Below, in pieces: positions 5,299-5,566 of a DNA stretch of 14,562 nucleotides. The stretch comes from a virus. Taxonomy: Duplodnaviria > Heunggongvirae > Uroviricota > Caudoviricetes. Under the pieces are notes generated by a model that saw only the letters and a list, made by a program, of their open reading frames with translations, searched no databases and had not been told where the DNA came from. A program made the translations under genes and the position numbers. Position 1 is the stretch's first letter, and the number at the start of each line of letters is the position of its first letter. Location: the IMG/VR virus record IMGVR_UViG_2534681835_000020. One strand, given 5' to 3'.

Positions 5299-5315
5299 AT
5301 CAGTGAGTAATATCC

Positions 5316-5347
5316 ATACAGTATACCACTGTATAACACTGTTATAC
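5316..5347. promoter_or_regulatory. Overlapping palindromes (ATACAGT-N5-ACTGTAT and GTATAACA-C-TGTTATAC) just upstream of the ribbon-helix-helix gene
   Basis: Read directly from sequence; position suits an operator. Confidence 0.4.
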
Positions 5348-5399
5348 GCTCAAATATCAGCCAGAAAATAACGGACCAATCACAAAGCTATCGCTGTGT

Positions 5400-5530
5400 T
5401 GTTGGTTCAGAGCTGGGCTGTGTTGGTTCAAAATGAGTTGATGTTGGTTCAATATTTTAGAAAAAACATAATAAAAACAACGATCTTTACAAATTGAACC
5501 AACTGAACCAACTGAACCAACTGAACCAAC
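5400..5530. repeat. Iteron array: three TGTTGGTTCA copies at exact 21-bp phasing, a 43-bp AT-rich spacer, then four perfect tandem 9-bp TGAACCAAC copies in the opposite orientation
   Basis: Direct copies at 5400-5409, 5421-5430, 5442-5451; AT-rich spacer 5452-5494; tandem copies 5495-5530. TGAACCAAC is the reverse complement of GTTGGTTCA. Confidence 0.75.
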
Positions 5531-5566
5531 ACCTTTTTGCTTATCTATATAATCTGAGAGGCAGAA

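Follow-up and report, generated by a model that had tools for sequence, protein, structure and literature searches.

The 14,562-nucleotide stretch of DNA analysed here (IMG/VR virus record IMGVR_UViG_2534681835_000020, hereafter the window) contains a compact block of 9-bp repeats, or iterons, between two divergent genes. We conclude that this block, at positions 5400-5531, is probably a Rep-binding replication-origin unit of a phage-inducible chromosomal island (PICI) of the EcCIMP1 type, orphaned because a deletion took the initiator gene rep and a companion origin unit. A preliminary description of the window had weighed an iteron-plus-AT-rich origin and favoured an operator of the neighbouring ribbon-helix-helix-like gene, on the grounds that no replication initiator is encoded. 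The initiator is indeed absent from the window and from the 20-kb locus L001 (tblastn), but the step from this absence to an operator fails because the initiator was lost in a 12.4-kb deletion. The origin reading is the one that gained support: in relatives the block stands directly after the gene for a Toprim-DUF927 primase-helicase (Pri-Rep), and its iterons co-vary with the C-terminal domain of that protein.

Anatomy of the repeat block and its linkage to rep

All seven exact copies of the iteron TGAACCAAC in the 14.5-kb window are confined to 130 bp, and other matches in the window carry one mismatch. The block, termed unit B after its counterpart in intact relatives, and its right-hand border consist of the following elements.

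5400-5451, minus strand: spaced arm of unit B, three iterons at 21-bp spacing, reading TGAACCAAC on the minus strand and TGTTGGTTCA on the plus strand
5452-5494, no strand: AT-rich spacer of 43 bp, presumed melting region, 16% G+C compared with 48% for the whole window
5495-5530, plus strand: tandem arm of unit B, four perfect TGAACCAAC copies with a period of 9
5531-5566, plus strand: T-rich stretch and TATA-rich motif (ACCTTTTTGCTTATCTATATAAT), then the ribosome-binding site of the PerC gene; conserved whichever gene follows

The repeat layout in the preliminary description holds in full: three copies at an exact 21-bp spacing (5401, 5422 and 5443), a 43-bp AT-rich spacer, and four perfect tandem copies in the opposite orientation. 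On the plus strand the spaced copies read GTTGGTTCA, the reverse complement of TGAACCAAC, at 5401-5409, 5422-5430 and 5443-5451; with the 5' T included they become TGTTGGTTCA at 5400, 5421 and 5442. The 3' part of the spacer, TCTTTACAAAT, runs into the first tandem iteron and is kept in relatives with other iteron specificities. The window has four tandem copies compared with three in most relatives (counted directly in L005, L008 and L208, the last being EcCIMP1 itself). The best E. coli matches to the block span 342 nt rather than 351 nt; the difference equals one 9-bp unit and is consistent with the gain of one unit by slippage.

The tandem arm of unit B is always trailed by A-y-n-TTTTG-y-TTAT-TATA and then by a variable next gene. 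The segment at 5531-5566 may be a promoter or may form the outer edge of the origin, and since the motif is kept whatever gene follows, unit B could possibly have a promoter-control role in addition to its probable origin role. A simple scan of positions 5150-5700 for sigma-70 promoters and terminators returned zero sites, and we therefore make no firm promoter claim. An Rfam scan of the window identified the IS3 frameshift pseudoknot alone and nothing at the repeats. A full-text literature search for the 9-mer returned unrelated primer and oligonucleotide matches only.

Two motifs border the tandem arm, TCTTTACAAATTGAACC on the inside (5484-5499) and TTTTGyTTAT(n)TATA on the outside (5531-5553). 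Both are also present in a Klebsiella satellite (L002, 4064-4120) and in an intact E. coli element (L008, 24866-24882), and both are kept across differing iteron specificities and differing downstream genes. A promoter, an unwinding element and a host-factor site are candidate roles.

Linkage of such blocks to rep was apparent in two scans, one based on the iterons alone and one blind to them. The iteron-only scan of IMG/VR, which required two tandem iterons, identified 120 loci, within which clusters were counted if they contained at least four copies in both orientations (n=87). A Rep homologue (56-100% identical) had its 3' end 25-110 nt (median 45) from 74 of these 87 clusters. Seven clusters preceded a PerC gene, only three of them with a ribbon-helix-helix-like gene as well; the remainder lay at locus ends (three clusters) or had none of these neighbours (three). 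The iteron-blind scan was seeded with the Rep protein and yielded 80 loci. At 68 of the 80 a TGAACCAAC cluster started 27-57 nt after rep, and 17 of these also had a second cluster 4.8-9.7 kb downstream.

When one genome per species was scanned, mixed-orientation clusters were found in Enterobacterales only, nearly always beside Rep, in the genera Erwinia, Leclercia, Cedecea, Pantoea, Serratia, Enterobacter, Lonsdalea and Escherichia. Long one-orientation arrays of the 27-mer (TGAACCAAC)x3 occur in candidate-phyla-radiation bacteria, Akkermansia and Streptomyces (L210, L216, L218, L222, L227, L249 and others) with no Rep nearby. These arrays were set aside as relatives on account of their single orientation and lack of Rep, and look like coincidental simple or coding repeats. 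At a further group of loci (L202, L205, L206 and L207), Rep homologues at 52% identity have a different C-terminal segment, KGITKKT-LRIDGKQ, and rep is not followed by repeats; some 8 kb upstream there is a TGAACCAAC cluster, possibly an orphan unit of a neighbouring element.

Iteron specificity and the two-unit arrangement

The Rep of intact relatives is a 918-amino-acid protein in which Zn_Ribbon_Prim, Toprim_3 and DUF927 domains were identified. In sequence it is nearest, among solved structures, to 8tch ('pathogenicity island protein', E = 1e-11) and to the Cch helicase of SCCmec (5dgk), and by this measure Pri-Rep is a relative of the self-loading Rep helicases of the Staphylococcus aureus pathogenicity islands (SaPIs). 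In SaPI Reps a C-terminal winged helix recognises the iterons, and the origin lies immediately downstream of rep; SaPI origins have an AT-rich region flanked on both sides by two or more iterons in opposed orientation, and two hexamers probably load there (PMC9371898, PMC7581432). The window block has three iterons on the minus strand on one side of its AT-rich spacer and four on the plus strand on the other. E. coli PICI origins share the SaPI design, and pri-rep-ori DNA from EcCICFT073 drives plasmid replication (PMC6092414).

Natural variants made it possible to pair iteron type with Rep sequence. Eight of the 80 Rep loci have other 9-mers (TGAGACAAC, TGAACCACC, TGAACCGAC, TGAACCACG, TGAACCCGT and ATAACCCGT) in the same architecture, with the same spacings and T-rich/TATA motif, every copy in both halves having changed in concert. 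The Rep segment that discriminates between the types lies about 35 residues from the C-terminus. In silico, [STN][GK]RG[YF]Q[RQK]K[SG]PR[IV] was present in 142/142 Rep-linked TGAACCAAC loci, which are mutually related and include some contigs fetched twice, and was altered in 8/8 variant loci (for example to DGKKFQ, DGQRFQ or GRV--RE). Overall identity of the Rep C-terminus was also tried as a predictor of iteron type and was not clean, as it ranged from 67 to 100% for the same iteron; the short segment alone discriminates. By analogy with SaPI Rep, the segment may be the wing of a winged helix.

A natural swap between L144 and L145 gave a similar picture. Over 3.1 kb the two rep bodies share 95.9% identity; the homology ends about 250 nt short of the stop codon and resumes past the origin, the Rep C-terminal domain and the origin being exchanged jointly as one cassette.

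Comparisons of this kind also bear on PerC. That the tandem arm stands directly upstream of perC in EcCIMP1-type islands would suit iterons that are autoregulatory or target sites of PerC. However, L144 and L138 have PerC proteins that are 98.8% identical but iterons of different types (TGAGACAAC and TGAACCAAC, respectively), and L144 and L136, which also differ in their iterons, share 98.5% identity over the 3.9 kb downstream of the origin. As a near-identical PerC sits with differing iterons, PerC is ruled out as the iteron reader; moreover, the 74 rep-linked clusters are beside rep and not perC, and unit B precedes unrelated genes in other elements. We consider PerC sites extremely improbable. 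Equally improbable is a role in plasmid-type partition, as a centromere-like site, or in packaging. ParG- and omega-type systems do use short-repeat arrays as centromeres, but neither a partition ATPase nor a terminase small subunit is encoded nearby, and the repeats co-vary with the Rep C-terminal domain.

Intact relatives showed where the block belongs. A sensitive blastn search of plasmids and phages returned Klebsiella records, of which the best annotated is a capsid-forming satellite (L002), circular, 16 kb long and equipped with capsid, protease and portal genes. It has at least 13 copies of the 9-mer, in both orientations and around AT-rich stretches, in the 290 bp after a 711-amino-acid DUF927 gene; window positions 5421-5521 are 78% identical to part of this stretch. 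The E. coli FDAARGOS_1260 element (L008) is intact and occupies the same thrW site as the window island. Its order is tRNA-Thr, integrase, AlpA-like helix-turn-helix gene, antirepressor, DUF4222, Ash, small open reading frames (ORFs), the 918-amino-acid Toprim and DUF927 protein, DUF2824 and ejection-protein genes, iteron block, and PerC. Unit A of this element starts 26 nt past the rep stop codon and consists of four tandem copies, an AT-rich spacer and three spaced copies. Unit B is its mirror image, 9.5 kb further on and immediately before perC. Window positions 5419-5537 are 81.5% identical to the reverse complement of unit A, and positions 5421-7560 are 99.4% identical to unit B and the genes downstream of it.

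In E. coli MP1 the PICI EcCIMP1 excises and is transduced with Kapi1, a P22-like phage (Pick, Stadel and Raivio 2025, PMC11773190). Both units are present in this element (L208), 8.4 kb apart, the rep-proximal one 26 nt after the stop codon and the distal one 37 nt before perC. It contains 12 exact copies of the 9-mer, whereas 0.35 were expected from shuffles and no shuffle gave more than 2. Across relatives, unit A begins 26-57 nt after the rep stop codon and the inverted unit B is 4.6-9.7 kb away. In EcCIMP1-type elements unit B lies directly upstream of the next operon (perC) and the cargo is exactly between the two units; in compact elements the units are contiguous. The start-to-start gaps are 21, 21, 52, 9 and 9 in unit B and 9, 9, 52, 11 and 21 in unit A; each unit holds a complete origin anatomy, with an equal arm-to-arm distance of 52 nt. 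This geometry is the same in lineages with Reps only 66-69% identical and with differing integrases and cargo, which speaks for a cis-acting function and against a relic.

In the mechanism that we propose, Pri-Rep would read the 9-bp iterons through the short segment of its C-terminal domain, load on both sides of the AT-rich spacer and then melt it. The origin of the family would comprise two mirror-image units, A (tandem arm, AT-rich region, spaced arm) and B (spaced arm, AT-rich region, tandem arm). We infer that Rep binds at unit B and that an origin can fire there, and an orphan unit B would be active only with a cognate Rep supplied in trans.

Alternatively, unit B might be a Rep-binding site that is not an origin, with a role in regulation or copy control (for example Rep-controlled transcription of perC and the operon downstream, or pairing with unit A by 'handcuffing') or, like crr of P4, as an enhancer in cis. 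The tandem arm stops 37 nt short of the perC start codon and is followed by the T-rich/TATA motif whatever gene comes next, many elements presumably replicate on unit A alone, and the two units are inverted copies several kb apart, as are ori and crr of P4. On the other hand, unit B has the full origin anatomy and the same 52-nt distance as unit A, which exceeds what a repressor site needs, and no sigma-70-like promoter was detected. This explanation, which we regard as unlikely, overlaps with an origin function and does not exclude it.

Several observations weigh against assigning the block to a PICI-type origin. Unit B is not adjacent to rep, as the classical SaPI/PICI origin definition requires; the window has no rep, and in relatives only unit A adjoins it. 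Many relatives have unit A alone; some elements can therefore do without unit B, whose task might be regulation and not initiation. About six independent variant lineages underlie the co-variation, the 142 loci in agreement being kin and in part fetched twice, and the wing assignment is an analogy with SaPI Rep. The source genome has one detectable iteron cluster only, so that the unit is probably idle there, and the paper describing EcCIMP1 mentions neither iterons nor an origin (PMC11773190).

The island as a satellite remnant

The repeat region matches E. coli O111:H8 strain 8E at 100% identity, and in this strain the island lies at tRNA-Thr (thrW) beside proA. Of 5,426 complete E. coli genomes, about 560 contain the whole block or part of it, at a median of two places per genome. 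The other features of the window considered here are as follows.

1-1214, plus strand: P4-type tyrosine integrase, thrW insertion; 97-99.8% DNA identity to the integrase of intact relatives
1609, no strand: deletion junction; the counterpart of L134 5289-17710, about 12.4 kb, is missing
1713-3024, plus strand: IS3-family insertion sequence of 1312 bp, with AAC on both flanks; in an ejection-protein gene remnant, 100 bp past the deletion
4843-5286, minus strand: 147-amino-acid protein with a ribbon-helix-helix-like N-terminal segment and a well-conserved C-terminal helical domain; variable island cargo, unlinked to the iterons
5316-5347, no strand: two overlapping palindromes, a separate module of the ribbon-helix-helix-like gene
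5567-5848, plus strand: PerC-family regulator (Pfam PF06069, E = 3.7e-30; protein accession WP_000617443.1)

The deletion was mapped by blastn of the window against L134, L133 and L008. Against the intact L134, window positions 1-1609 correspond to 3679-5288 and positions 1609-1713 to 17711-17815. Lost in the 12.4 kb are alpA, the antirepressor, Ash, small ORFs, Pri-Rep, origin unit A and most of the ejection-protein genes. The IS3-family element has the ends TGAACCGCCCCGG and CCGGGGCGGTTCA and an ALIL frameshift pseudoknot at 2049-2165. With regard to the features of an EcCIMP1-like PICI, the window has the thrW/proA insertion, the P4-type integrase and the PerC-like EcCIMP1_025 module (identical protein accessions). 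The core of AlpA, antirepressor, Ash and DNA primase has been deleted, and the window island is therefore a remnant. In keeping with the single iteron cluster detectable in the source genome, its unit B is an orphan and probably idle there.

PerC of the window and EcCIMP1_025, the first gene downstream of unit B, share the accession WP_000617443.1. EcCIMP1_025 silences LEE1 expression (PMC11773190).

EcCIMP1-type satellites bring their own P22-like DNA-ejection genes, namely DUF2824, an ejection protein and an SLT-domain protein (L008 25582-30750, L208 14481-19649). At 2948-4021 the window has the C-terminal 130 amino acids of one ejection protein, followed by a 203-amino-acid membrane ORF that is weakly SieA-like (PHROG E = 4e-4). 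This fragment and the weak SieA-like ORF, to the left of the repeats, prompted us to consider a P22-like prophage immI region (Mnt/Arc/ant) as the source of the iterons. Such a source was ruled out: the sole match in the phage collection was the iteron core (window 5421-5521, 78%), in a record laid out like the Klebsiella satellite, and the ejection genes belong to the satellite itself.

Further along the island, an HNH endonuclease gene (plus strand) and a C-5 cytosine DNA methyltransferase gene (minus strand) are convergent at 7890-9597, with 3' ends overlapping at 8464-8549; the pair looks like compact restriction-modification-like cargo. A CP4-type module at 10393-13118 contains CbtA and YeeU pseudogenes, DUF987, a RadC-like JAB protein, an antirestriction protein and DUF932. 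As this module is joined to a satellite remnant, the island is composite.

The left side of the region proved to be independent of the iterons. The genes flanking the region are divergent, as first described, with the 147-amino-acid ORF on the minus strand and PerC on the plus strand. The RefSeq start of the 147-amino-acid ORF is 5286 and is supported by the alignment of homologues, although the ORF listing extends it to 5298. The overlapping palindromes at 5316-5347, also noted earlier, are real: ATACAGT/ACTGTAT (5316-5322 and 5328-5334) and GTATAACA/TGTTATAC (5331-5338 and 5340-5347). A LexA box at this site was ruled out, as the order is ACAG...CTGT rather than CTGT-N8-ACAG. Homologues of the protein (68-100% identical) were found in twelve fetched loci, and in all of these CGTATAACAGyGTTATACAGTGGTATACTGTAT is located 30-61 nt upstream of the start codon. 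Because they are kept upstream of every homologue whatever the context, we assign the palindromes to this gene, for which they probably form an autoregulatory operator/promoter.

The iterons behave differently. At eight of the homologue loci (68-76% identical) there are none within 300 nt upstream; the palindrome is kept and the sequence further upstream is unrelated. Conversely, the gene is absent from EcCIMP1 (which has alpA_1 in its place), L005 and L008, all of which keep unit B, and it is not found with the block in L007 or beside any rep-proximal unit. In L160 and L161 a homologue and the same palindrome accompany origin iterons of another type, ATAACCCGT. Alignments with many relatives start precisely at iteron one or two (query positions 111 or 132), and thus the ribbon-helix-helix-like gene with its palindromes is a separate module. 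From these data we conclude that the supposed single control region consists of two independent modules, palindromes and iterons, which are adjacent here by arrangement.

The operator proposed in the preliminary description, in which the iterons serve a ribbon-helix-helix protein at two divergent promoters (a layout comparable to omega, ParG or Mnt/Arc), is plausible for the palindromes only. In its favour are the adjacent and divergent gene, the short direct and inverted repeats typical of such operators, and a strand-helix-helix pattern at the modelled N-terminus of the protein. For the iterons, which do not accompany the gene across relatives, we consider it very unlikely.

The ribbon-helix-helix label itself is no more than plausible. 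The 147-amino-acid protein had no Pfam match, and a PDB sequence search and phage tblastn were uninformative. An AlphaFold model from a 23-sequence alignment had a mean predicted local distance difference test score (pLDDT) of 73.5, with extended N-terminal residues followed by helices at 13-25 and 30-42 (pLDDT 55-72). Foldseek of the model gave nothing significant, the best matches to ribbon-helix-helix antitoxins having a probability of about 0.2; one database source labels a homologue 'Arc-like DNA binding domain protein'. The C-terminal ~70 residues, at a pLDDT of about 90, include the long stretch NEAGYQTKAGKAWDKDIYSAWKRQ, invariant across Enterobacterales.

Significance and comparison with known systems

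For the window itself, these results mean that the repeats are a stranded remnant and not a new control system. More generally, what looked like a regulatory repeat region can be annotated by function, as the probable replication origin of EcCIMP1-type PICIs, which was left unmapped in the paper describing EcCIMP1. The roughly 12-residue C-terminal segment of Pri-Rep, paired with six natural iteron variants, provides a candidate recognition code. The two-unit origin is split, with a geometry conserved across divergent satellites, and a unit B without unit A or rep is a simple marker of decayed satellites, which are frequent at thrW in E. coli.

Tentatively, the EcCIMP1-type origin might be split on purpose. 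Unit B would then be a working second origin or a crr-like partner, and also a promoter region occupied by Rep, through which satellite induction would be coupled to expression of the PerC-like LEE silencer and of the genes that follow; orphan copies would still respond to the Rep of an incoming cognate satellite. If this speculation were true, an incoming Rep could trigger local chromosomal over-replication or perC expression in trans, and orphan copies are common in O111 and other E. coli.

Among known systems, the ribbon-helix-helix operators of P22 Mnt/Arc, omega and ParG are matched by the palindromes at 5316-5347, which stand before the ribbon-helix-helix-like gene and travel with it; the window iterons differ in that they do not.

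The closest counterparts of the block are the SaPI/PICI origins of SaPIbov1, SaPI1 and EcCICFT073 (Ubeda et al. 2007; Fillol-Salom et al. 2018, PMC6092414; Qiao et al. 2022, PMC9371898). Common to both are opposed short iterons around an AT-rich region and, in relatives of the window island, an initiator of the DUF927/SaPI-Rep helicase type that is fused here to a Toprim primase, a unit within about 30-60 nt of the rep stop codon, and a specificity that goes with the C-terminal domain of Rep. These relatives encode a cognate Rep from the self-loading helicase family; that of the window was deleted. The differences are that the window unit is a second, inverted one, 4.6-9.7 kb from rep in intact elements and orphaned here, that the iterons are 9 bp long compared with the 5-6 bp reported for SaPIs, and that the two arms are unlike in design (9-bp tandem versus 11/21-bp spaced). 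A PICI-type origin is thus already a known kind of element; as far as we found, the split mirror-image arrangement and the pairing of a Rep segment with iterons are undescribed in the literature searched.

With EcCIMP1 the window island shares the thrW/proA site, a near-identical integrase region, identical PerC (WP_000617443.1), pRiA4b-ORF3 and 61-amino-acid proteins, and iterons of the same kind, EcCIMP1 having both units. The window island differs in lacking everything from alpA through Pri-Rep and unit A, in carrying the IS3-family element, and in having the ribbon-helix-helix-like gene in place of alpA_1.

A further parallel is provided by satellite P4, whose ori and crr are two clusters of one iteron, several kb apart, bound by the alpha primase-helicase. 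The P4 iteron is the octamer TGTTCACC, and both clusters are required in cis. The relatives of the window island likewise have two distant clusters of one iteron, in a satellite with a P4-type integrase. The helicase families differ, alpha being of the D5/SF3 type and not DUF927, the family of the initiator described here.

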